A DNA stretch of 64,000 nt. It comes from an uncultured cyanobacterium (GTDB lineage: Bacteria; Cyanobacteriota; Cyanobacteriia; Pseudanabaenales; Pseudanabaenaceae). Shown one piece after another: positions 14,009 through 64,000 of this stretch. The stretch spans positions 3,040,001 to 3,104,000 of the forward strand of contig OY969811.1 in assembly GCA_963703315.1 (NCBI GenBank), given 5' to 3'. A model generated the notes under the pieces. It saw only the letters and a program-made list of their open reading frames with translations, searched no databases and had not been told where the DNA came from. The translations under genes and the position numbers were made by a program. How positions within the stretch are numbered: the stretch's first letter is position 1; every line of letters starts with the position of its first letter.

Positions 14009-14216
14009 TACCAAAACTAAAAATGGCTACGCTGTTTTTAGTTTTAAAAACCATTTCCGAGTTTTATATCTATAGTCAATTATGTTAGGACAAAACCAAA
14101 ACCCAAAAGAGAGTTGCGGCGCTTCGCGCCACAACTCTCTTTTGGGTTTTATGTCTTAACTTGCTTGGCTATGGCTATAATTCACGAAATTGTTATTACA
14201 CTTTCGTGAATTGGTA
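14006..14216. repeat. Family C mini-element with a nested family B element (14065-14179)
   Basis: Outer ATACCAA...TTGGTA ends shared with 40847-40924 and 55562-55666; inner element is an inverted homolog of 52802-52916. Confidence 0.7.
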
Positions 14217-18551: not shown

Positions 18552-18734
18552 GTAGGGGCTTAGCATTTGCGCCACAATTTTTAAACCCATTACAGAAATT
18601 CCGATCCGCAAATGCTAAGCCCTCTGTGCTTTTACAGACAATTTACCCCTGCGTTGCGAGGTTTTGGGCAGAGCATTCCCAAAGAAAAACTATCTAAAAA
18701 TTGATAAATTTACGCGGGAATGCTTTGCCCCTAC
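18552..18734. repeat. GTAG-type REP/REPIN doublet, unoccupied
   Basis: GTAGGGGC...GCCCCTAC termini and two internal hairpins; inverted homolog of 36308-36482. Confidence 0.85.
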
Positions 18735-19235: not shown

Positions 19236-22166
19236 TACTATCCAGCGAACTTACAAGAGATGCTAGCACAGCTAATCCACATCAGCCAAAAATTTGTCAA
19301 ATTTCACTCAAAAATGTGATGGCACTATCGGCGATCGCACAGCAAAAGTCAGCGATCGTAATCTTTAACCTTCTAGCCCACCCTTAATTGCGGCAATTAC
19401 AACTTTTGCGACAGGATGATTGATTGCTTCTTCTAGTGCGGTAATGCCCCCTTCTTTGAGAGCATTGAGTATTTTGTGTTGAAGCGTGGAATCTTTTTTT
19501 ATCGTATTGATAGCTTCATCTTTGATAAGATTTTGTCCCTTTTCGGTATTGGGATTGTACTCTTCCGAAAGTTGCTCGAGTAGCTCTTTGATTTCTTTGG
19601 CAGCTTGTGCAAGATTTTGGGAATTGTTGATTTGAGTTCCGATTTTATCGCGTCCAACTTTGTCACCACCGATTTTATCACCGCGCACATAGTCACCGCC
19701 AAAGCTAGTTTGTGAATTGCTCATAGTTTGCTCTTGGTTTTGATTAACGTAAATGCTAACAGATGCTGAATTTGATAGTTGGTTATCCTTATCCAATCGT
19801 TTATTTTCATCTTCAAAAGATTTGGATAGCATTGACCTTAAGCCAGCATCATCAATTAAGCCTAATACATTGACAGATTCATAACTAATGTCACACTCAA
19901 CGGTGTATTTGCGGTTTTCATAGCGACGTTTGAGGTTGGTGAATTCGTAGAAATGGGGATTTTGACTGCCGCCACAGGTGTTGCAGTTGCAGGGGATGAG
20001 CTTTTGATATTTGTCGGCGAGGCGTTTGTAGGAGTTGTGGATTTTGTCGAGTTCGTGGGTGACTACTGTTAATAGGTCGCGCTTGTTTTTGCCAGAGACG
20101 CGGATCTTGATTTCGCGTTTGCCATAGTTTTCAATGACTTCGGCATAGGTGTTGCTGATATTTTTGCAGTGGATGATTACGCCGCTACGCCAGACGATTT
20201 GGTTATTGGCTAGGTCTTTATTGATATGTTCGTGCATGGCGACGATGAACTGACGCACGATGCCTTTGGGCATGAAGTCGTAGGTATAGCGGAGGATCAG
20301 GTTTTCGGATTCATCCCAAGCGTATTCAGGTTGGTTTTCGGTGAGGAGTTGGGGGGCGATGTAACTGCCTTTTTCTTGCGGGATTTCGTAGCAGAGTTGA
20401 AACTTTTTCATTAGTTCCAGTAAGCCGCTATGCATTCCTGTATATTCGTCTGCGCTCCAAATTTGGGCAAGTTCTTTGTTGCTGAAGCGTCCAAAGTTGC
20501 GGATTACTTCGGGATTGTCGAGAACGGCATAGGCGGCATCGGTTCCCCATTTTGGTTTGAGGATAACGATTTGATAGAGGGGAGACATTTCATCGTCTTG
20601 GAAATGCAGACAGATGCCGAGGTCATGGAGATAGCCGCTAAGCTGTAATGCGTCTTTACGCTCTTTAAAGCCTTTGTCCTCGCAGATTTGGAGATATTCA
20701 CTGAGGTTAATGTAGTTGCGCGGATCGTTCTCTAGGGCTTGGCGGACTTTGACCCATGTTTTGGGTAGGGTTTGACCGATGTGGGGGAGTTGATTGAGTT
20801 GATGTTTGGCTTCTTTCAGGATTTTATCTAAATCGCGGTTGGTGGCGAGATTGGTGGCAAAGACATCTTTAAAACTGCCAAATTCTCCGCGCAGTTCTTT
20901 GACATTAATTTCCCTCTGACGGTCTTGTTTTTCGTTTTTGATAATCAGAATCGGGCTGTTGTCGCTAAGGAGTTCGATGACGTTGAGCCAATAGTAAAAA
21001 TCGGTGTCTTCTTTGCGGGTATCGGCAACGAGGAGATAGAGGGAGCGTTTGGTGAGGAAATATTGATGGGTGGAGTGATAGATTTCTTGTCCGCCGAAGT
21101 CCCAGATATTGACGTTGAATTGCTTGCCATCGTTGCGGGGAAATGACCAATGTAATACTTCGATGCCTTTTGTGCTGTCTTCTTCGCAGAGTTGGTAATT
21201 GGGATTAATGATTTTATTAGCAAGGGAGGTTTTGCCTGCGCCGCCTTCACCGACAATCAGGAGTTTTGCTTCGTAGAGGTAGTCTACGCCTTCGGCTTCT
21301 ATTTGTTTGAAATATTGACGAATGGCTTCAATACCTTCTTTTACTACTTCTAAGGGTGGTTCTGTTATTGGATTTTTGTCTAGATTTAGATAAGAAAGTT
21401 TGGTTAACCTTGTAATCAAGTCGGGAATCGCGCTGAGATGTGTGCCGATAAGGTCAAGGGATTGGAGATTGGTTAACCTTGTAATCGAGTCGGGAATCGC
21501 GCTGAGACTGTTGTAGCTAAGGTCAAGGGATTGGAGATTGGTTAGCCTTGTAATCGAGTCGGGAATCGCGCTGAGACTGTTGTAGCTAAGGTCAAGGGAT
21601 TGGAGATTGGTTAGCCTTGTAATCGAGTCGGGAATCGCGCTGAGACTGTTGTAGCTAAGGTCAAGGGATTGGAGATTGGTTAACCTTGTAATCGAGTCGG
21701 GAATCGCGCTGAGACTGTTGTAGCTAAGGTCAAGGGATTGGAGATTGGTTAACCTTGCAATTAAGTAGTAAATATAGATGATACTGTTTCCGCTAAGGTC
21801 AAGGGATTGGAGATTGGTTAACCTAGCAATCGAGTCGCAAATCTCGCTGATACTGTTGTTTTTAAGGTCAAGGGATTGGAGATTGGTTAACCTTGTAATC
21901 GAGTCGGGAATCTCGCTTAGACTGTTTCTGCTAAGGTCAAGGGATTGGAGATTGGTTAACCTTGTAATCGAGTCGGGAATCTCGCTTAGACTGTTTCCGC
22001 TAAGGTCAAGGGATTGGAGATTGGTTAACCTAGCAATCGAGTCGCAAATCTCGCTGATACTGTTGTTTTTAAGGTCAAGGGATTGGAGATTAATTAACCT
22101 TGTAATCGAGTCGGGAATCTCGCTTAGATTGTTTCCGCTAAGGTCAAGGGATTGGAGATTGGTTAA

Positions 22167-23425
22167 CTCAGATCTTGCACCATTCCTGAAAATGTTAAGT
22201 GGGAATGGGTTTGAGAATAATTTCAAAGCCATGACGAGCAGCAATATCGGCACTAATTTGAAGATACCTGAGAAGTTTCAACCAAAGGACAGAAGGGAAT
22301 AAAACAGAAAGAGTTAAATCACAGGTAGCTTTCCAGTCCAAGATGGGAGGACTCGACCATTGATCAATCCAATGAACCAAAAGATAAGCAAGCAGAGAAA
22401 GGATAAGCCAACGATAAACGCCAAGTTTTGTAGATTGTCCAAAACAATGCAAACCAAAGCGATGTTTGATGGTTTTGAAGAAACCCTCAATTGCCCAACG
22501 CTTACGCCCCAACATAACCAGATAAGCACCAGAATAAGGATGAGAAGAGACGACAAAGCGTAACTCCCGTTTACTATCGGCTCTTTTGAGCCAGAACCAA
22601 GAGATGGTCAAAGGCTTAGTTAGCCCTTTCAGTAAAACTTGTTGTCCACGGTTGCCATGGCGATAAAGTTGTTTGACGGTACGTCCATCTTGAAGTTTGC
22701 GATTGTTGCGTACGCCAACAACTATGCGCCAAGACTTGGCGCGGACAGCATTGAAAAACTTCACCGTACTAAACTCAGTATCAGCAAGGACAATCACAGT
22801 CTTGCCTTGGGTTAGTTGCTTGGGTACTGTCCCCAACAACTTACAAGCTAAGTCAGAGGGACTGGGGTATCCTTTGCCGCGCCATACTCTAAAACTCCAT
22901 GGTACGCGCCACTCTCCATAGACCAAATACAGTACAACCAGATGTAGTCCTCGCTTGCCGTTTAGTATTCTCACCCATGGGTCGGGTTTGTCTTTAGTGG
23001 GATTGCTCAATTGTAAGAACTTGCCGCATTTTTCTAGGGTCGTCAAATCTATCAGGATCTTTAATGGCACTTGTTTCGATGGATGATGCTTGCCGATTTG
23101 TCCCAAAATAGCCTGCCTTGTTGCTCGAATTAGTCCTCTGGTTGACCAGTTATAGTGATTGAGAAATCGACTGAGCGCACTTGCTGATTTTATCTGTGTA
23201 TGTTCTGGATAAGGATGCCCTTGTGCTTCCAGAAATAGCCCTAATATTGCATTGAGACTTGCTTTTTGATACACACTTGGCATCAAACACAGAAGACTAT
23301 ACACTAGCCATTGGGCGTGTTTAACGATGCTTTCCATAATCGTTATTTGAATTTACTACTACGCCCTTTTTTTCACATTTCTGCTCTTTCTACAACCCCT
23401 TTTCTTGAATGGTGCAAGATCTCAG
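22167..23425 (-). mobile_element. IS701-like (IS4 superfamily) insertion sequence, 1259 bp
   Basis: TIR CT(C/G)AGATCTTGCACCATTC (18/19); TTAA duplicated at 22163-66 and 23426-29 (alternatively read as GTTAAC, 6 bp); family assignment tentative. Confidence 0.88.
22195..23337 (-). CDS. DDE transposase
   Basis: LIDLTTLEK, VLADTEF, RWAIEGFFKTIK. Confidence 0.9.
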   Translation of the reverse strand: MESIVKHAQWLVYSLLCLMPSVYQKASLNAILGLFLEAQGHPYPEHTQIKSASALSRFLNHYNWSTRGLIRATRQAILGQIGKHHPSKQVPLKILIDLTTLEKCGKFLQLSNPTKDKPDPWVRILNGKRGLHLVVLYLVYGEWRVPWSFRVWRGKGYPSPSDLACKLLGTVPKQLTQGKTVIVLADTEFSTVKFFNAVRAKSWRIVVGVRNNRKLQDGRTVKQLYRHGNRGQQVLLKGLTKPLTISWFWLKRADSKRELRFVVSSHPYSGAYLVMLGRKRWAIEGFFKTIKHRFGLHCFGQSTKLGVYRWLILSLLAYLLVHWIDQWSSPPILDWKATCDLTLSVLFPSVLWLKLLRYLQISADIAARHGFEIILKPIPT

Positions 23426-24156
23426 TTAACCTTGTAATCGAGTCGGGAATCTCACTTAGACTGTTTCCGCTAAGGTCAAGGGATTGGAGATTGGTTAACC
23501 TTGTAATCGAGTCGGGAATCTCGCTTAGATTGTTTCCGCTAAGGTCAAGGGATTGGAGATTGGTTAACCTTGTAATCGAGTCGGGAATCTCGTTGAGATC
23601 GTTGCTTCCAAGGTCAAGAGATTGGAGATTAGATAATTCTGCTATTTCAGTGGGTAAAGTTTTGAGCAAATTAACCAAAAGGGTTAATGTACCACTACTA
23701 TAACCCTTATCAGACAAGTAATGATTTGTTTCAATGATTGTTCCTAAAACCAATTTCTTCAAACTTGTGCAATTCCCGATCGCTGCTGGTAATACCTCAA
23801 TCCCCTTCCCCGACAGATCGAGTTCTTCCCAATTCTCCCGCGCCGCCTGTTCAATAAGTTCTTCTAATTCCGATGGCAACATGATTTCAAGGAAAAAGTA
23901 AAAGGGTAAAAGGAAAAAATTGGGTTGAGGTTGAGGGCGATTGTATGAAATTTACAGTAAACCAAATGTTAGACATTAAGAATAACTTACAAATATTCTA
24001 AATTGCCAACCATATCTTCAGGCGTTAACACCTCCCAGATCAAAATCAGACTCCTCAAAATCTCGCCAGTTGTCCGAGATCGCTTTAGGTCTTTCTCTGG
24101 ATGACGTTAAACAGTTAATATCTGAGTAAAATAGGCAGTAAGTTAAAAATTTAAGG

Positions 24157-34224: not shown

Positions 34225-34869
34225 CTAGCGATCGCTTAACTCTTGTTGTAGTTTAGGCAGACTCTCTAATTCAAATACAGTGATTTGTCCAGAATTAGCG
34301 CCCCCCCTGCCATTTTGAAGTAACTCCACCCAATAGCCATATTTTTTACCTTGACGGACTTCCCCTTGCAAAGCCCACAGAATTGCGGAAGCGTTCTTGC
34401 TGCGCGATCGCTGCACCATTGCCGCAGTGGGATAGGCATACACCCGTTTAGCAGTAGCATAATCGCGCATTACTTCAGGACCATAAATAGAACGTAATGA
34501 CTCTTCTAGACGCGATCGCGTGACACCATTGACGATATCCACAAATCTAATCTGCTCACTTCTAATCAAGTTAGCATCGCTACTCTTGATGGTAGCTATT
34601 CCTGGTAGCACGACACTGGCTTGAAATTGAAAGCGTCTTGATGGCGTATCACTTTTTTTTACCAACAGTCTTTCACCTGCTTCTGGACGTAAGGCAGGAT
34701 TGGTTCTAATCCAATCGATAACTTGATCGGGCGTTTGACCGGGTAAAGCGATCGCCGATGGGATCGTTTGCCATGCAGTCGGCACAGCAATGCTTAATAT
34801 TTGCGTCAAAAGCGTTGTAGCGATCGCCGTTTTCACATGGTTAATGTTTGCGCTCTTAAAGCAATTCAT
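34225..34869 (-). CDS. Exported hypothetical protein
   Basis: 214-aa ORF, signal-like N-terminus, ALPGQ. Confidence 0.7.
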   Translation of the reverse strand: MNCFKSANINHVKTAIATTLLTQILSIAVPTAWQTIPSAIALPGQTPDQVIDWIRTNPALRPEAGERLLVKKSDTPSRRFQFQASVVLPGIATIKSSDANLIRSEQIRFVDIVNGVTRSRLEESLRSIYGPEVMRDYATAKRVYAYPTAAMVQRSRSKNASAILWALQGEVRQGKKYGYWVELLQNGRGGANSGQITVFELESLPKLQQELSDR

Positions 34870-35068
34870 GAGATTCCTCTACACCAATTAAATCCTAGTA
34901 GACAAATTTAGCTGGCAAATAATGGCTGACAGAATATCATGGACTGGCGTAATTGCAATGACTTTTTCAGTCTTTTTCCGATATTTTTAGGACATCTGTC
35001 GCCGTAGTGTCATTTTTTATTCGTACCCATAGAATAGAACTGTAGATACTGTCTTGAGTACCAAAAAG

Positions 35069-36055
35069 TCAAGAGGGAATTTGAACAAAATTTGGGTCGA
35101 AAGAACGCTGAGACTTGAGAACGCCAAAGACCTGTCGTAACAGCTTGTGCATGACAGCCCCAATGACAGACATTTTGGACTTACCCTTAGCCGTAAGGCG
35201 AGCGCAGAAAGCAGCAATCGGCAAATTATAACGACGGGCAACAATCGCAGGCATAAACAAAGCTTTACGCAAACGCGAATTACCAATTTTAGATAAACGT
35301 GGCTTACCATGAATCGAAGAACCAGATGAGAACTCACGGGGAGTTAAACCCGCAAAAGCTGCCAGTTGATCAGCAGTATCAAAGGCAGAAATATCCCGAA
35401 TTTCCGCCAGTAATATAGTTGCGGTCAGTTCAGCAATACCAGGAATAGAAGTCAACAAATCCCGTTGAGATTTCAAATGAGGGTGTTGATCAAAGTGCTG
35501 ACGGATCAATTTTTTGGTCATCTCAATTTGCTCTTTGAGAAAATCAATGTGAGCATTAATTGCCTCAACCAAAATTGGATCAGCCGTAGCAAGACGATTC
35601 TGCTCTTGCTGCTGCATAGCAGTTAAGCTATCTAAACGATGCACCAATGCTTGTAGTTGCTCAATTTCTAATGCTGGTGGTGTCCAAAGAGCAGGTTTTA
35701 AGGCTGCACAAAATCTAGCAATGACTTTAGCATCAGCACGGTCAGTCTTTGTACGACTTAACTCACTCTTGCCAAAGGCTTTGGGACGGGATGGATTAAC
35801 AATACTTACTTTGTATCCTGCCTCTACTAAGAATCTAGCTAACCCATTGCCGTAAGTGCTGGTAGCTTCCATACAACTATGCAAGTTTGTCACATTTTGA
35901 AGGTTTAGCCATTCTTGTAATTCAGCAAATCCTTCAGGATTGTTGGCAAATACTTTGCTCTTGATTTTGGCGTTGCCTTGGATTAGAGCAACATCAAATT
36001 TGGCTTTGCTGATATCTATTCCTAAAACATCATATACTTCATTGTTATTGTTCAT
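35069..36055 (-). CDS. IS110 DEDD recombinase
   Basis: GIDISK, MEATS, KTDRAD, SIPGI, AFAGLTP..FSSGSS. Confidence 0.96.
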   Translation of the reverse strand: MNNNNEVYDVLGIDISKAKFDVALIQGNAKIKSKVFANNPEGFAELQEWLNLQNVTNLHSCMEATSTYGNGLARFLVEAGYKVSIVNPSRPKAFGKSELSRTKTDRADAKVIARFCAALKPALWTPPALEIEQLQALVHRLDSLTAMQQQEQNRLATADPILVEAINAHIDFLKEQIEMTKKLIRQHFDQHPHLKSQRDLLTSIPGIAELTATILLAEIRDISAFDTADQLAAFAGLTPREFSSGSSIHGKPRLSKIGNSRLRKALFMPAIVARRYNLPIAAFCARLTAKGKSKMSVIGAVMHKLLRQVFGVLKSQRSFDPNFVQIPS

Positions 36056-36091
36056 TGGGGGCAGTCCTCTTGCTAGATTTGTCCATCAAGC

Positions 36092-36300
36092 AATCAGTGG
36101 TATTGAACTATCCTTGTGAATGCAGGTTTACCCGTTGGGCGACCTCTGATACTGTCCAGTCTTTACTTGTTTCCACTGTTTAAGCAGAGACGACTCTATC
36201 TACAAAACGGGCTTGGTGTCCCTAGGGGCAGATCGAGTTTATCTCTGCTTTTGCTTTTTCGGATTGTAGTAAAGATTTTATCCTTTACTTTTCCTCCTAG
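36092..36300 (-). ncRNA. Predicted bridge RNA of IS110 copy L
   Basis: Mirror of copy R; guides at 36224-32, 36200-04, 36148-55, 36113-17; ends approximate. Confidence 0.8.
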
Positions 36301-36307
36301 ATACAAG

Positions 36308-36482
36308 GGGCAGAGCATTCCCGCAGGAATTTATACATTTTTAGATAATCCTCCTTTGGGAATGCTCTGCCCAAAACCTCGCAACGCAGGGAAAAATTGT
36401 CTGTAAAAGCATAAAGGGCAGAGCATTTGCGGAACGAGATTTGTGTGATGGGTTTTCAAATTGTGGCGCAAATGCTCTGCCC
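36308..36482. repeat. REP/REPIN doublet, occupied at both ends by IS110
   Basis: Homologous to reverse complement of 18552-18734; removing both IS restores GTAGGGGC...GCCCCTAC. Confidence 0.9.
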
Positions 36483-36489
36483 CTTGTAT

Positions 36490-36698
36490 CTAGGAGGAAA
36501 AGTAAAGGATAAAATCTTTACTACAATCCGAAAAAGCAAAAGCAGAGATAAACTCGATCTGCCCCTAGGGACACCAAGCCCGTTTTGTAGATAGAGTCGT
36601 CTCTGCTTAAACAGTGGAAACAAGTAAAGACTGGACAGTATCAGAGGTCGCCCAACGGGTAAACCTGCATTCACAAGGATAGTTCAATACCACTGATT
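36490..36698 (+). ncRNA. Predicted bridge RNA of IS110 copy R
   Basis: 5' hairpin, target loop (TCTGCCCCT 36558-66, TGTAG 36586-90), donor loop (ACAGTATC 36635-42, ACAAG 36673-77); ends approximate. Confidence 0.82.
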
Positions 36699-36735
36699 GC
36701 TTGATGGACAAATCTAGCAAGAGGACTGCCCCCCA

Positions 36736-37722
36736 ATGAACAATAACAATGAAGTATATGATGTTTTAGGAATAGATATCAGCAAAGCCAAATTTGATGT
36801 TGCTCTAATCCAAGGCAACGCCAAAATCAAGAGCAAAGTATTTGCCAACAATCCTGAAGGATTTGCTGAATTACAAGAATGGCTAAACCTTCAAAATGTG
36901 ACAAACTTGCATAGTTGTATGGAAGCTACCAGCACTTACGGCAATGGGTTAGCTAGATTCTTAGTAGAGGCAGGATACAAAGTAAGTATTGTTAATCCAT
37001 CCCGTCCCAAAGCCTTTGGCAAGAGTGAGTTAAGTCGTACAAAGACTGACCGTGCTGATGCTAAAGTCATTGCTAGATTTTGTGCAGCCTTAAAACCTGC
37101 TCTTTGGACACCACCAGCATTAGAAATTGAGCAACTACAAGCATTGGTGCATCGTTTAGATAGCTTAACTGCTATGCAGCAGCAAGAGCAGAATCGTCTT
37201 GCTACGGCTGATCCAATTTTGGTTGAGGCAATTAATGCTCACATTGATTTTCTCAAAGAGCAAATTGAGATGACCAAAAAATTGATCCGTCAGCACTTTG
37301 ATCAACACCCTCATTTGAAATCTCAACGGGATTTGTTGACTTCTATTCCTGGTATTGCTGAACTGACCGCAACTATATTACTGGCGGAAATTCGGGATAT
37401 TTCTGCCTTTGATACTGCTGATCAACTGGCAGCTTTTGCGGGTTTAACTCCCCGTGAGTTCTCATCTGGTTCTTCGATTCATGGTAAGCCACGTTTATCT
37501 AAAATTGGTAATTCGCGTTTGCGTAAAGCTTTGTTTATGCCTGCGATTGTTGCCCGTCGTTATAATTTGCCGATTGCTGCTTTCTGCGCTCGCCTTACGG
37601 CTAAGGGTAAGTCCAAAATGTCTGTCATTGGGGCTGTCATGCACAAGCTGTTACGACAGGTCTTTGGCGTTCTCAAGTCTCAGCGTTCTTTCGACCCAAA
37701 TTTTGTTCAAATTCCCTCTTGA
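36736..37722 (+). CDS. IS110 DEDD recombinase
   Basis: Protein identical to 35069-36055. Confidence 0.96.
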   Translation: MNNNNEVYDVLGIDISKAKFDVALIQGNAKIKSKVFANNPEGFAELQEWLNLQNVTNLHSCMEATSTYGNGLARFLVEAGYKVSIVNPSRPKAFGKSELSRTKTDRADAKVIARFCAALKPALWTPPALEIEQLQALVHRLDSLTAMQQQEQNRLATADPILVEAINAHIDFLKEQIEMTKKLIRQHFDQHPHLKSQRDLLTSIPGIAELTATILLAEIRDISAFDTADQLAAFAGLTPREFSSGSSIHGKPRLSKIGNSRLRKALFMPAIVARRYNLPIAAFCARLTAKGKSKMSVIGAVMHKLLRQVFGVLKSQRSFDPNFVQIPS

Positions 37723-37864
37723 CTTTTTGGTACTCAAGACAGTATCTACGTTTTTGTTGCGATAAATCACTGATGGTGCAATAGGTAAGCTTTCGTGAAA
37801 ATGCTTTGATAGTAAGGACTTGCAGCTTTATTCCAAAGAAATCAAAAAAAACATGCTCAAGGTA

Positions 37865-37893
37865 TTGACAAACCTTTTGTAAATCTCCATAAT
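37865..37893 (+). promoter_or_regulatory. Sigma70-type promoter of tRNA-Asp
   Basis: TTGACA-N17-CATAAT. Confidence 0.75.
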
Positions 37894-37982
37894 AAGGAGC
37901 GCTTAAATAAAGAAACGCAAAAACCGCGCTGCAAACCAGTTGGTAGCAAGCAATTCTTTAAATAAAGTTTAAGCAAAAATTT

Positions 37983-38056
37983 GGGTTCGTAGTTCAATTG
38001 GTTAGAGCACCGCCCTGTCACGGCGGAAGTTGCGGGTTCGAGCCCCGTCGAACCCG
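37983..38056 (+). tRNA. trnD: tRNA-Asp(GTC)
   Basis: GGGTTCG/CGAACCC acceptor stem, CCGCC-CT-GTC-AC-GGCGG anticodon arm, GTTCGAG T loop; CCA not encoded. Confidence 0.97.
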
Positions 38057-38083
38057 TTCTAGATAAGAATTTTAATAAGAATT

Positions 38084-39154
38084 TTATTTATCATCAGACC
38101 ATCCTAAAAGATTAGATAGCCAACCACGTTTTTGTGGCGGTGCAATAAGTGGCTTTTTTGTGGAATTTGGCTTAGGCAATTTTTTCGCAGTTGCGCTTTG
38201 AGCAGAATTAGGATTGCTCAGATCCTTGATGTGTTTTAATGCCAATGGCTCCTGCGGATTAATCTGAAGCGATCGCATCAGGCTAACTTTTGCCATTTGG
38301 GGCTGATCAATATTTTTGTAAACCACACCGAGCATGGCGTGACATTTGCTACTGTTTTTATCGAGTTGCAAAATCTCGCGCAAATCCTTGAGGGCAGCTT
38401 TCCAATCACCCTGACTCATGTAGATTTCACAAATTTTGAGGCGGTCAGCGATCGCGCTCGGATCTCTTGGCTCAATTCTGGTCTGGATTATCGTTTCATC
38501 GGAAGATGGCGAATTAGGAGATTTGTGACTTGATGAAGAGGAAGTAGGATAAGCGTAACTAGATTTTGCAAGTGATTGGGGATAGGTGGGCATCACCAGT
38601 GGTTTCTGCACCATCGGTTCCAGTACAGGTGGCATATCGGGATCGCCATATTGGTAGCCTTCCTTATAAAGGATATACACCAAATTTAGTTCACTGATCT
38701 GGGCTGTATATTCGAGAATATTATCTAGAGATTGATATTGTAATTTTGCGATCGCGGAAACTGAACGCTCGTAATATCCATCATTAGGAGCTAGCATAAA
38801 CTCACAGGCTAAAGCCGAATGAATTTGAACATTACGCGATTTTTGCATCAGCCGCTTAGCTAGTAACTTAAAGATCCCTTGATAAGCCTTGCGTTCTTCC
38901 TCTTTCATGAGAATGTCGTAGGCAGGATTGACCAGCTTTGCCAAATACTGAGTTGCTACAGCTTTTTCTTTAGCCGAAAAGCCATATACGTCAGGGTGCA
39001 AAATACGAGCAATACTCAGATAGACATGACGAATGTAAATGGGGCTGGTGATAATTGGCAAGCCCAAGGCAGCGTAGTAGTCATGATTGAACTGACTAAT
39101 GCCTCGATTGATGCGGATAAGCTGGAGATTTTGCTCCTTGGGCAGTTGATTCAT
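38084..39154 (-). CDS. J-domain and TPR protein
   Basis: DYYAALG...LHPD...VNPAY; C-terminal TPR. Confidence 0.85.
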   Translation of the reverse strand: MNQLPKEQNLQLIRINRGISQFNHDYYAALGLPIITSPIYIRHVYLSIARILHPDVYGFSAKEKAVATQYLAKLVNPAYDILMKEEERKAYQGIFKLLAKRLMQKSRNVQIHSALACEFMLAPNDGYYERSVSAIAKLQYQSLDNILEYTAQISELNLVYILYKEGYQYGDPDMPPVLEPMVQKPLVMPTYPQSLAKSSYAYPTSSSSSHKSPNSPSSDETIIQTRIEPRDPSAIADRLKICEIYMSQGDWKAALKDLREILQLDKNSSKCHAMLGVVYKNIDQPQMAKVSLMRSLQINPQEPLALKHIKDLSNPNSAQSATAKKLPKPNSTKKPLIAPPQKRGWLSNLLGWSDDK

Positions 39155-39372
39155 AATTGCTCGCGTTGCCCATAACTAAAATGATGGTGGCAAACTGAAT
39201 TTGGCAAATACAATCTTGAAATTCAGTTCGAGATACTTTAGACTTTGCAACATTTCTAACCAAAATATTAGCTTAATCTGTATGGATCTGCGATTTGCTA
39301 AGGAATCAGATTTTTTGTGGCGCGGCTGCGCCGCGCCACAAAAAATCTGATTCCTTATTTTCCTTAATCTAA

Positions 39373-52777: not shown

Positions 52778-52994
52778 TAAGTAAGTAGACTTAATTAAAT
52801 ATATAGCTATAACCAAGCAAGTTAAAACATAAAACCCAAAAGAGAGTTGCGGCGCGAAGCGCCGCAACTCTCTTTTGGGTTTTGGTTCCGTCCTAACATA
52901 ACTGACTACAACTATAAAAGCCTAGAACTTATGACAAAGGCTGTGCTTGCGCCATAGGTTTTAGATCTGGTTCTTAATTATACTGAGCTACTTA
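52778..52994. repeat. Family A element with nested family B element (52802-52916)
   Basis: Inner AAAACCCAAAAGAGAGTTGCGGCGC-GAA-GCGCCGCAACTCTCTTTTGGGTTTT flanked by duplicated TA. Confidence 0.72.
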
Positions 52995-55543: not shown

Positions 55544-55992
55544 ATAGAGACTGGCAAAATATAATACTAATTTAAAAAATGGCGTTGCCATCTTTTAAAC
55601 TTCAAAACCTTACTAGGTTTATTTTTTAATTTATTGAAGTGTTGACTCACTTCAGTGAATTGGGATAAAAGCATATAGAGGTGCGATACACTTCTATATG
55701 CTTTTAGGTATTGCGACTAGTGATCGCAAAAAAATCATTAAAAGCGGTAAAAATCTTAATATCTTTGACCACAAAATGATTTAAGATATCGGCACTCAAC
55801 ACAAAAATGCTAGTCCCACTGGAAGCAGTGGGATTTTTTTTTGTACTTTTATCATTGCACAAAATGTTTGTGTGGTGCGATAACAAATTTAGAGAAGTAA
55901 GTAGCTAGGCGCAACGAAATATAAAACCAAAAAAAATGTGGCGCACGCGCAGCGTGCGCCACATTTTTTTGCTCTGAATCATCAAAGAAGAA

Positions 55993-57187: not shown

Positions 57188-57571
57188 ATGATGTTGCATT
57201 CACAAAACCACAGTTAACCTGTGTATTTACCGTTGATTACATATAATCATAATACACTCTAATTTGCCTGATTGACTGACAAATCTTACCCACAAATAGG
57301 CAAGATGCCCGTTCCACTAAAAGCGTGGCACTAATCGCCATTTTTAGTTTTGGTAAGTAGGCGGGTTTAATTCAGATTTAAAAGCTATAACACAGGCTGT
57401 GCCTGTGTTATAGCTTTTAAATCTGGGGTTTAATTATGCCGAGATACTTAATAACATGACAGTAAATTACGATTTATCGCTAAAGTGGATACATAGAACA
57501 CCGACAAACTATTGAGAAATTGTGGGGAATTGTGGCTCGTCTTCAAGAATTTTCACAATTTCCTGTAATTT

Positions 57572-59128
57572 ATGATTATGAGACCAACTGCATTTATTCC
57601 AATCACCGTATTCATACTTACTCTTGCTTTGCTAGGGTGGGGATATTTTCGTTCCCGCAAGTTTGGCAAGCTGGGGTTACTGTCTTGGCTACAATTTGTT
57701 TCCCTAATGTCGCCTTGGCTAGTTTACTTTGGCTTGTTTGTGTCAGGTGTTTTTATAAATTTCACAACGCTATTATTTTTATTAGTTAGCTCGACGATCG
57801 CCTATGTCCTGATTGGCAATCAATTGCGTAAGGTTGCCTCAGTCGAGAGAGAAGCGATCGAGCAGAAATTAAGACAGGATCTGGAAACGTCGGGAGAACA
57901 ACTCAACACTGCCAACAATCCAATTAATAACTCACCCATTAATTCGCCTATTGCGATCGCGATGTCGCAGGGTAAGACACAGCTAAAACTGTTTAAGGCT
58001 TTGCCTATGGAGGATCTCAAGTTAATCCAAGGAATCTTTGGCATTGAAACCTATTACGTTACCGAAACAATTCCCTATCAAGAGGGAGTAATTTTAAAAG
58101 GTAATTTGCGGGGAGAGCCTGATGTGGTACACGATCGCTTGACCCAATCCCTAAGCGATCGCCTCGGTGACAAATACAATCTGTTTTTAGTGGAAGGTCA
58201 AGATCGTAAGCCTGTCGTGATCGTGCTGCCTAGTCGAGCTATTTTTAATAATGATACGATTCCTCAAAAAATATTAATTGCTGTATTAATTTTTGCCAAT
58301 ATCTACACATCGCTCAGTTTGGGAGCTTTAGTTGCAGGGATTCCTGTAGTCCAAAATCCTCAAGAATATTTAGTAGGATTACCCTTTGCTCTGGGTATTG
58401 GTGCGATTTTGACATTACGCGAGTTGTCGATGCGATGGATGGCAGGCAAATATAAGGTGAAGATGAGTTTGCCATTTTTACTACCTTCTTCACAGTTAGG
58501 TTCCTTTGGCTCATTTAGTCGCATTGTGTCCCCCTTACCGAACCGTGTCGCCTTGTTTGATATCGCGATCGCCCCAGTAGTGGTGAGTGGATTGTTATCT
58601 TTGGTGCTGCTGCTAGTGGGTTTACAACTTTCAGCGATCGGGATGGGAAGTATTGATATTCCTAGCCAAATTTTCCAATCATCAGTACTAGCAGGAACCT
58701 TAGCCAAACTATTTCTCGGTGAGGCATTACATTCTAACTTTGTCTCAATTCATCCGTTAGTTGTGTTGGGATGGCTCGGCTCCACCATTACGGCGCTAAA
58801 CTTAATGCCCGCAGGACAGCTTGATGGCGGCAGGATTGTGCAATCTATGTATGGACGAAGGACGGCTAGTTGGACGACGGTAGTGACATTGGTTTTCTTA
58901 GTGATTGCCACAGTGATTAACCCCTTAGCACTTTATTGGGGGGGGATTGTCTTAATTCTGTTGCGAGATTTGGAACGTCCGATGTTGAATGAGCTTTCAG
59001 AACTTGATGGCGATCGCGAAGCTTTGGGAATGGTAGCTCTATTTTGGATGCTAATCACTCTATTACCACTTACCTCTGGTGTCGCTGAACGACTAGGTAT
59101 TGGTAGTGTTGGTGGACTCTTACCATAA
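57572..59128 (+). CDS. Site-2 protease (M50) family protein with degenerate zinc motif
   Basis: NLMPAGQLDGG present; HExxH position reads RELSM. Confidence 0.85.
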   Translation: MIMRPTAFIPITVFILTLALLGWGYFRSRKFGKLGLLSWLQFVSLMSPWLVYFGLFVSGVFINFTTLLFLLVSSTIAYVLIGNQLRKVASVEREAIEQKLRQDLETSGEQLNTANNPINNSPINSPIAIAMSQGKTQLKLFKALPMEDLKLIQGIFGIETYYVTETIPYQEGVILKGNLRGEPDVVHDRLTQSLSDRLGDKYNLFLVEGQDRKPVVIVLPSRAIFNNDTIPQKILIAVLIFANIYTSLSLGALVAGIPVVQNPQEYLVGLPFALGIGAILTLRELSMRWMAGKYKVKMSLPFLLPSSQLGSFGSFSRIVSPLPNRVALFDIAIAPVVVSGLLSLVLLLVGLQLSAIGMGSIDIPSQIFQSSVLAGTLAKLFLGEALHSNFVSIHPLVVLGWLGSTITALNLMPAGQLDGGRIVQSMYGRRTASWTTVVTLVFLVIATVINPLALYWGGIVLILLRDLERPMLNELSELDGDREALGMVALFWMLITLLPLTSGVAERLGIGSVGGLLP

Positions 59129-59159
59129 ACAAAAAGCGGCGCATCGCGCCGCTTTTTGT

Positions 59160-60110
59160 TTATGATCTGAATTCTGCAAAAATCTTATTGAGAATATCTT
59201 GAGCGCCTTTGTCCTTAAGTTGATGAGCTAGCTCCATACCAATTTGATCAGGCTTTGTCAATTCACCTGTCACTTCTCCTTTCACAAAAGTCTGACCATC
59301 GAGGCTAGCGACAATTCCTTTTAGAGTAAGCTGATCGCCATTAATGGAAGTATTCACACCGATGGGAACTTGGCAACCGCCTTCTAGTTCACGCAAGAAG
59401 GAACGCTCTGCTAGACAGCGTTGGGTGGTCGGATAGTGGATAATTGGTGCAAACAAAGCCAAGATTTCAGGATCTTCGGCACGACATTCGATACCCAATG
59501 CACCTTGTCCAACGGCATGGAGCGAGATTTCTGGATCAATCACTTCGTGGACGCGATCGCCAAATCCTAGACGCCGTAAACCTGCGGCAGCAAGAATCAG
59601 CGCATCATACTCACCTGAGTCTAACTTTTGTAACCGAGTATTGAGATTACCGCGTACATCTTTAAATGTGAGGTGAGGATAGTAATGACGCAACTGAGCA
59701 AGGCGACGTAATGATGATGTGCCAACAACAGTACCAGCAGGTAAGGTGGCAAGGGTTTTGTCCTTTAGCTTTTCATGGACAACTAAGGCATCGGCGGGAT
59801 CTTCCCTCTCCGTAATTGCACCGAGGATCAGCCCTTCAGGTAAATTAGTTGGTAAATCTTTAAGACTATGTACGGCAAAGTCTGACTCTTTCGTCAGCAT
59901 TGATACTTCTAATTCTTTGGTAAATAAGCCCTTATCACCAATTTTAGCAAGAGCTACGTCAAGGATTTTATCCCCCTGTGTACTCATGGTAACAACTTCA
60001 AACTGGTGATCGGGGTGTGCTTTACTTAGTTCCGCTTGTACCCAATGCGTTTGTACCAGTGCTAGCTGACTTTTGCGAGAACTAATGCGAACTGTTGAGG
60101 ATGCAACCAT
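59160..60110 (-). CDS. hemC: Hydroxymethylbilane synthase
   Basis: [30 protein letters not shown]. Confidence 0.98.
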
Positions 60111-61716: not shown

Positions 61717-61835
61717 GTTTGTGAAGAAAGTTTACAAAAAAATGATTTTAACCCAGAAATGAAAGGCGGCGCATCGCGCCGCCTTTCATTTCTGGGTTTT
61801 ATATTAAACTAAAGCAGATACCAGAAAAATTTGCT

Positions 61836-63505: not shown

Positions 63506-63712
63506 TAAAAATAGACCTCCTTCAAGAGCTAAGATGAATTTTACCACGTCAAAGAAGCCATTCTTTTCTGAAAACTTTTTATGCGTAGTATCTTTATAGC
63601 GATCGCCAGTCTTGCTAGGAAAAACCCCAGAAGAGATTTGCGGCGCATCGCGCCGCAAATCTCTTCTGAGCATCAAAAAGAAAAAGGCGGCGCGATGCGT
63701 CGCCTTTTTCTT

Positions 63713-64000
<288 letters not shown>

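Follow-up and report, generated by a model that had tools for sequence, protein, structure and literature searches.

Guide match and occupancy of GTAG REP ends by an IS621-like IS110 element in a cyanobacterial genome

Introduction

Two REP composites in a 64,000-nucleotide window of a cyanobacterial genome are identical at 154 of 179 positions (86%) and differ in their occupancy: one is empty, whereas the other carries a copy of the same IS110 element at each of its ends (Table 1). The window is the whole stretch of DNA that was analysed; coordinates without a contig label are positions in it, and the genome studied is designated G000. The empty copy raises the question of whether it was passed over on account of its mismatches to the guide of the element or for another reason, and of what the variation among REP ends represents. 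Guide–target concordance with 0–2 mismatches in natural IS110 elements, REP targeting and action in trans, the latter for the IS621 bridge RNA, are already described in the accessible parts of Durrant et al. (2024; PMC11208160), and handshake and excision work on the bridge system is found in those of PMC13626964.

Table 1. Coordinates of the REP composites, IS110 copies and guide-related features in the window
Feature	Position	Strand	Remarks
Empty REP composite, 183 bp	18552–18734	.	Two GTAG-tagged hairpins, tags outward; RAYT-associated family
Empty end TAAGCCC-CT-AC	18552–18562	-	Heptamer 18556–18562; 2 mismatches to TCTGCCC guide
Empty end TTTGCCC-CT-AC	18724–18734	+	1 mismatch to guide, position 2
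Doubly occupied REP composite	36306–36484	.	Span includes both left CT cores
Internal half-site TCTGCCC-AA	36366–36372	+	Without CT core; empty
Internal half-site TCTGCCC-TT	36416–36422	-	Without CT core; empty
IS110 copy, 1261 bp	36485–37745	+	CT cores 36483–36484 and 37746–37747
Second IS110 copy, inverted	35046–36305	-	CT cores 36306–36307 and 35044–35045
Recombinase gene, 328 aa	36736–37722	+	PF01548 + PF02371
Recombinase gene of inverted copy, identical protein	35069–36055	-	
Putative bridge RNA, target- and donor-binding stem-loops	36535–36700	+	Approximate ends; fold z = -2.9
Left target guide (LTG) TCTGCCCCT	36558–36566	+	Mirror copy 36224–36232 (-)
Right target guide (RTG) GTAG (36587–36590) with 5' extension TTTT	36583–36590	+	
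Left donor guide (LDG) ACAGTATC	36635–36642	+	Matches element right tip 37739–37746
Right donor guide (RDG) ACAAG	36673–36677	+	Reverse complement of core + left tip, CTTGT
Candidate -35 box TTGACT	37719–37724	+	18-nt spacer to TATCTT

The element and its putative bridge RNA

The genome holds seven copies of the element, which are 99.8–100% identical and differ at only two columns. Their boundaries can be read directly: CT lies on both flanks in 7/7 copies, no target-site duplication extends beyond this core, and the reconstructed empty sites are REP ends or a coding region. The recombinase has the domain arrangement of IS110 transposases, with an N-terminal DEDD domain (PF01548), a C-terminal PF02371 domain that carries the conserved serine and a length within the 300–460 residue range; it contains the motifs GIDIS (12), CMEAT (61), KTDRAD (103) and REFSSG (240) and scores 244.7 bits against NF033542 (cut-off 140). 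Its closest solved relatives found with phmmer are ISCro4 (PDB 9t56; 3.5 × 10−76 over residues 9–321, compared as protein) and IS621 (7 × 10−73), while named relatives at 93–97% identity are mostly titled Pseudanabaena. The element is best classed as an IS621-like IS110 of the published bridge-RNA kind.

The left end contains two internal loops, one with the LTG and RTG and the other with the LDG and RDG, which match the target and the donor, respectively. A consensus fold of eight left ends gives two stems with the guide loops open, and 7 of 37 pairs are changed on both sides. An Rfam scan of 34700–38200 returned a tRNA and sub-threshold matches only, with no family for the left-end RNA; the tRNA gene (37983–38056) follows the right IS copy at a distance of 240 bp. 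A promoter-like arrangement, TTGACT-18-TATCTT, arises only across the computed circle junction, and the left end in its integrated state gave no promoter-like site in a consensus scan. No circle joint was present among the assembled contigs of four sequencing runs, one of them an RNA run; one contig of run X1 skips 36483–37745, as an empty allele would, but it reaches just 25 letters on one side, may derive from another REP copy and was set aside. The RNA, its pairing and the circle promoter are modelled on the IS621 work, and transcription of the bridge RNA and its binding by the recombinase are putative.

The two copies in the window form an inverted pair (35046–37745) of 1.26 kb near-perfect inverted repeats around a 179 bp spacer, and a second inverted IS pair occurs at G000:C1:2714878–2717573. 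Three of 48 genomes (G018, G020 and G056) retain a 31–39 bp palindrome of two right tips joined at an internal TCTTGA/TCAAGA repeat, which is probably what is left after such a pair has collapsed; the scar in G018 adjoins a truncated RAYT-like start.

The REP family and the two composites

The empty composite folds as DNA into two hairpins (z = -6.2) and has 46 blastn matches in the genome, the REP copies being approximately 67–90% identical to it. The GTAG tag stands at the end of the palindrome and the copies are many and extragenic, with 62 AATGC-type ends in the genome, 60 of which are backed by a hairpin. A single RAYT gene (G000:C1:348804–349283; 85.7 bits against NF047646, cut-off 80) lies between two copies of the repeat, which is assigned on these features to the RAYT-associated GTAG REP/REPIN families. 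Cyanobacterial GTAG palindromes, their dimers and single RAYT genes flanked by repeats are likewise described in the available text of Di Nocera et al. (2013; PMC3733652), in which the name Pseudanabaena does not occur.

At 44 of the 60 hairpin-backed ends the same variant is present in both arms, and this is also the case for all ten TCTG outer ends. The TAAG end of the empty composite belongs to this majority, its inner arm (18616–18622) carrying the same TAAG variant, whereas the inner arm behind the TTTG end (18666–18672, -) still reads TCTGCCC, so that the hairpin contains a G–T wobble. A tandem array of six 131 bp half-elements of the family, with TTTG and TATG ends mixed and all empty, is found at G000:C1:3985034–3985869.

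The neighbours of the empty composite are an acyltransferase gene (PF00698; 17616–18497) and a gene for an HNH protein (PF01844; 18741–19235), the stop codon of which is 6 bp from the composite. Genes with 13 copies of a 69 bp (23-residue) tandem repeat, leucine-rich-repeat-like by period, follow at 19365–23882. Short palindromes with GCGC-rich cores form another abundant class of repeat in the window, with no relation to the GTAG family (14098–14150, 39296–39357, 52831–52883, 55898–55976, 57373–57425, 59123–59164, 61748–61800 and 63622–63715).

The strings quoted in the sequence-only reading for the empty, occupied, half-site and guide DNA are all present at the places given. Both occupied ends read TCTGCCC-CT, at 36476–36484 (+) and 36306–36314 (-), with the AC resuming beyond the elements, and no other composite in the genome's element list is perfect at both ends. 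That reading regarded the empty copy as a natural specificity control. The pattern is as described, but two of two occupied against none of two amounts to a probability of 1/6 by hand arithmetic and is not above chance. The internal half-sites are indeed empty, as are all 21 core-less half-sites in the genome (occupied 0); since they lack the CT core, they test the requirement for a core and not the match to the guide.

Occupancy across the genome

A census of all 62 AATGC-type REP ends with CT-AC in the genome provides the larger sample that the window lacks. Tabulated by mismatch number, as the sequence-only reading had proposed, occupancy follows the match: five of ten perfect ends are occupied against one of 52 mismatched ends (Fisher p = 2.2 × 10−4), and the ends with a single mismatch already differ from the perfect ones (1/32; p = 1.6 × 10−3). 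Neither variant found at the empty composite is occupied in this genome, with 0/5 for TAAGCCC and 0/10 for TTTGCCC; some TTTGCCC ends are nevertheless occupied in the relatives G026 and G063. Extending the count to all genomic CTAC sites gives 5/10 with no mismatch, 1/59 with one, 1/230 with two and none beyond. A lone perfect left arm followed by CT-AA is empty.

The seven copies accordingly divide into five at TCTGCCC-CT-AC, one at TCTACCC-CT-AC, also a REP end, and one at TATTCCC-CT-AC. The last, a two-mismatch insertion (L024; G000:C1:3868926), lies outside any REP and apparently interrupts a minus-strand coding region. Guide match predicts occupancy and is neither sufficient, as five perfect ends are empty, nor necessary, as two of the seven copies stand at mismatched sites. 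At these two sites the right flank matches the sequence 5' of the right guide over runs of 4 and 5, which are reached by only 5/59 one-mismatch and 9/230 two-mismatch genomic sites. Across 22 related copies with both flanks, such right-flank compensation gives ρ = 0.56 (p = 0.007), a trend that was noticed post hoc. Mismatched sites are used less often and would be preferred where the right flank extends the pairing 5' of the right guide.

That the composite at 18552–18734 is empty by chance or through its locus context (transcription, the hairpin or selection near convergent or adjacent genes), and not because of its mismatches, is very improbable. Half of the perfect ends are empty too, so that one empty element is weak evidence by itself, and a target stem-loop enhances insertion of ISPpu10 according to the accessible part of the report on that element (10.64898/2026.03.19.712850). 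All ten perfect 11-mers in the genome are REP ends, and the role of the hairpin is therefore inseparable here from that of base pairing. The hairpin context is, however, common to all AATGC-type ends, yet their occupancy divides by guide match. The composite is most simply empty because both of its ends would be poorer targets for this guide allele. Local hopping as the origin of the two doubly occupied elements is not claimed, each having a chance of approximately 0.22 by hand arithmetic.

Guide alleles and insertion sites in relatives

The element is present in 10 of 47 congeners and, in a phylum sample that does not speak for absence elsewhere, in this genome and one other out of 401. A plasmid collection gave no IS match, and viral contigs gave one pattern match that is not an IS left end. 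Guides and sites were paired for 49 copies from genomes and 11 metagenome loci. The latter are what was kept from 40 matches of a pattern scan after 29 without a left end upstream had been dropped (28 chance matches and one truncated true copy, L124), and one of them (L134) was removed as a duplicate of L129. Setting aside the more distant Chamaesiphon copies (L036 and L037), L010/L040, L042 and L009 leaves 54 close-family pairs, of which 18 are perfect over LTG positions 1–7, 19 have one mismatch and 17 have two or more. In the 49 genome pairs, 49 of 56 mismatches fall at positions 1–4.

Nine alleles occur at guide positions 1–4: TCTG, TTTG, TATG (in one truncated copy), TCAG, TCAA, TAAA, GAAA, GCAG and ACAG. 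Single steps join them into a network, and guide changes are confined to these positions, where diversity is 0.50 compared with 0.078 in 195 other columns (26 haplotypes); the recombinases across the series share 94–97% amino-acid identity. A tree of 27 IS bodies (17 different), in which six of 14 inner branches are open, pairs L003 with L066 and places the GCAG and TAAA alleles split.

The guides track the sites. The mean number of mismatches at positions 1–4 is 1.04, against 2.11 when the pairs are permuted (p ≤ 5 × 10−5; 20,000 permutations over 25 genome–guide groups, among which kin are not independent), and all 41 distinct right junctions start with AC. Two complete genomes show reciprocal occupancy: G000, with the TCTG guide, occupies 5/10 TCTG ends and 0/7 TCAA and TAAA ends, whereas G021, with the TCAA guide, occupies 0/10 TCTG, 2/3 TCAA and 2/10 TAAA ends (occupied ends compared between the two: p = 0.008). 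That the shift in G021 follows its guide also argues against chance or locus context as the cause of the empty copy in G000. The draft genome G026 departs from perfect matching, with perfect sites at 0/9 of its TCTG-guide copies that have a readable left junction; two of these copies stand at TTTGCCC and two at TATGCCC. The occupied TTTGCCC site in G063 carries a TTTG-guide copy, and some relatives, such as L024 and L014, stand at non-REP sites.

The proposal that occupancy follows guide complementarity thus holds in this genome, reciprocally in G021 and across the 25 genome–guide groups, in a looser form than the sequence-only reading implied, given the empty perfect ends and mismatched copies counted above and the one third of family pairs (18/54) that match perfectly. 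It is highly probable that occupancy follows guide complementarity at the level of both the genome and the genus, with an IS621-type bridge recombinase homing into REP ends. The left end would encode a bridge RNA whose guides, TCTGCCCCT and GTAG, pair with TCTGCCC-CT-AC, directing the recombinase to the outer GTAG ends of the RAYT-associated REPs.

REP variants and the question of escape

The variants at mismatched ends had further been read as possible escape alleles, that is, TTTGCCC and similar ends would have arisen or spread in an IS–REP conflict by escaping the TCTG guide. This is distinctly unlikely. Three congeners in which no IS copy, guide or junction was found (G023, G031 and G041) hold the same REP variants as this genome, and perfect TCTG ends are not depleted here relative to these IS-free congeners (10/62 compared with 14/71; p = 0.66). 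The TTTG sites are also not safe from insertion in relatives, being taken by TCTG-guide copies in G026 and by a TTTG-guide copy in G063.

An escape change would be expected to leave TTTG in the outer arm and TCTG in the inner arm. This asymmetry is found in 6/15 ends here compared with 24/202 in congeners (p = 0.009), and the right end of the empty composite is of this kind. However, two of the six are tandem duplicates, drafts without a detected copy show similar proportions (G033 3/5, G019 3/10 and G044 5/18), and the other TCTG-guide genomes do not differ from the rest (2/14 compared with 22/188; p = 0.67). Nor do genomes with and without a sign of the IS (16/106 compared with 14/111; p = 0.70), where G032 is counted among the former (with 1 of the 16 and 6 of the remaining 90 ends) although its right-junction match, in an unrelated context, is probably due to chance. 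A C-to-T change in the outer arm gives a tolerated G–T pair, and asymmetry would then be expected from the hairpin constraint.

Two further observations bear on escape. In G026, which has many TCTG-guide copies, none of 27 AATGC-type ends is TCTG (p = 0.0095 relative to the IS-free genomes); as this is a draft of 270 contigs, where a doubly occupied element would appear as a short contig, the count may reflect either depletion or a gap in the assembly. The palindromic scars in 3/48 genomes suggest that double occupancy can destroy a REP, and there would thus be a cost to escape from. Against this, the seven IS copies differ at two columns and the REP copies are far more divergent, and the REP variation therefore looks older than the invasion; the sharing of a variant by both arms is likewise expected if subfamilies are copied as units. 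The REP variants would thus represent old subfamily variation that predates this invasion, and would constitute a menu of targets from which sibling copies in congeners, bearing other guide alleles, take other variants. Support for an arms-race reading of REP variation is removed in this system.

Guide change, possible trans guidance and guide DNA as a breakpoint

One copy is a mosaic. L003 (G021:C1:4538390–4542373) has a TCAA loop, yet it agrees with L066 at 111 of the 116 sites that are diagnostic between this GCAG-lineage copy and the TCAA-lineage copy L019. The exceptions are five consecutive sites in the target loop (73, 74, 77, 90 and 99), and apart from a 233 bp insertion L003 and L066 differ nowhere else; of the five, 73, 74 and 77 alone are diagnostic in the strict sense, and the lineage-diagnostic sites 57 and 125 delimit the patch. 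L003 sits at ACAGCCC, the kind of site that GCAG guides typically occupy. For this copy, present in a single assembly, the simplest explanation is that a 27–67 bp target-loop patch underwent gene conversion after insertion. The insertion that interrupts L066 (G021:C1:1596192) is MITE-like, with terminal inverted repeats, and a similar sequence occurs in the left end of L039.

If guides and sites had come to agree only after insertion, by homogenization, or if the mosaic were an artefact of assembly or polishing, the alleles would carry little information on the history of targeting. The mosaic does rest on L003 in a single assembly, and the target is repeated directly in the guide DNA over 9 nt, approximately 81 bp away, both being involved in rearrangements. 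At occupied ends, however, the variant of the inner arm equals that of the flank (TCTG/TCTG 10/10), which argues that the flanks were not rewritten, and the L003 patch has lineage-diagnostic sites on both sides. Direct copying of guides from the adjacent target flank was considered and rejected, as the base before the guide is A or T and that before REP targets is C. Agreement acquired after insertion, or an artefactual mosaic, is on this evidence unlikely.

Alternatively to an extended right pairing, guidance in trans by a co-resident allele, modelled on IS621, might allow a mismatched site to be used. L034 (guide GAAACCC), a 92%-identical copy in another cyanobacterial family, stands at ACCGCGA with six mismatches, yet this site is a perfect target of the co-resident IS110 L042, which has the same donor tips and belongs to the same metagenome-assembled genome; this single genome suggests horizontal transfer together with trans guidance. 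In G026 a TCTG copy is found at TAAACCC and a TAAA allele is co-resident. Over the 17 pairs with at least two mismatches, a co-resident guide lowers the number in six and brings it to 0–1 in three, so trans action accounts for only some mismatched sites. Half-match insertion is another source of such sites in the accessible part of a published report (10.64898/2026.08.31.748434).

The guide DNA reads TCTGCCCCT-AG at 36558–36568, which the sequence-only reading took as a possible means of avoiding self-insertion. In keeping with this, none of the 41 distinct right junctions enters the guide flank; in relatives, on the other hand, the guide CT is a breakpoint. L094 (G021:C1:1266186) is a left-end stub that ends at the guide CT and joins a REP right flank, thereby recreating a perfect target, and L095 (G058:C1:2022719) is a stub ending at the same CT base. 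In L109, L131 and G026:C109 (with one extra T) a second left end begins at the guide CT, although the contig names of L109 and L131 point to one metagenome. L137 is likewise a left-end stub or tandem left end broken exactly at this CT. These breaks may stem from the recombinase acting on the guide DNA as a pseudo left target, or else from slippage at the 9-nt direct repeat.

Comparison with known systems

At its core the result confirms, in a new host, a bridge-RNA rule that is already published. As far as the accessible parts of Durrant et al. (2024; PMC11208160; PDB 8wt6) extend, IS621 of E. coli likewise has PF01548 and PF02371, a CT core, a GTAG-REP end target ending in CCTAC, guide loops in the left end and a target guide of 9 nt on the left and 4 nt on the right. 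Both elements tolerate G-to-A at position 4 of the target (here at site 2716314) and give a hint of extended right-guide pairing. Unlike what those parts describe for IS621, the host here is a cyanobacterium, the target is a 183 bp two-hairpin REP composite with approximately 6/62 ends occupied, nine guide alleles occur within one element lineage, and both ends of one REP are occupied by inverted copies, twice in the genome.

ISPpu10 of Pseudomonas putida likewise targets an arm of a repeated stem-loop, and its left guide is strict near the core but permissive of mismatches at the distal positions 1–4, according to the accessible part of 10.64898/2026.03.19.712850. This tolerance matches the natural spectrum of mismatches found here; unlike the ISPpu10 pattern described there, some relatives stand at non-REP sites. 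Searches of open-access papers and preprints brought up neither the target-loop patch nor an allelic series of guides with reciprocal occupancy, although Supplementary Data 2 of PMC11208160 may list these guides.

Biological implications

The value of the system lies in a natural allelic series, with nearly identical recombinases, nine guides and ends that can be counted as empty or occupied. It provides an in-genome dataset on mismatch tolerance, in which positions 1–4 are loose, positions 5–9 are nearly fixed and pairing on the right is longer at mismatched sites. The odds slightly favour viewing the lineage as a population of interchangeable guides, with a single-step allele network that mostly matches REP variants, conversion of a 27–67 bp loop, guidance in trans and guide DNA that acts as a pseudo-target and leaves stubs that regenerate landing sites. 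Target-loop conversion between copies together with trans guidance is a candidate route for natural target change, and the lineage would, if this is true, constitute a natural record of how the specificity of bridge RNAs is reprogrammed.
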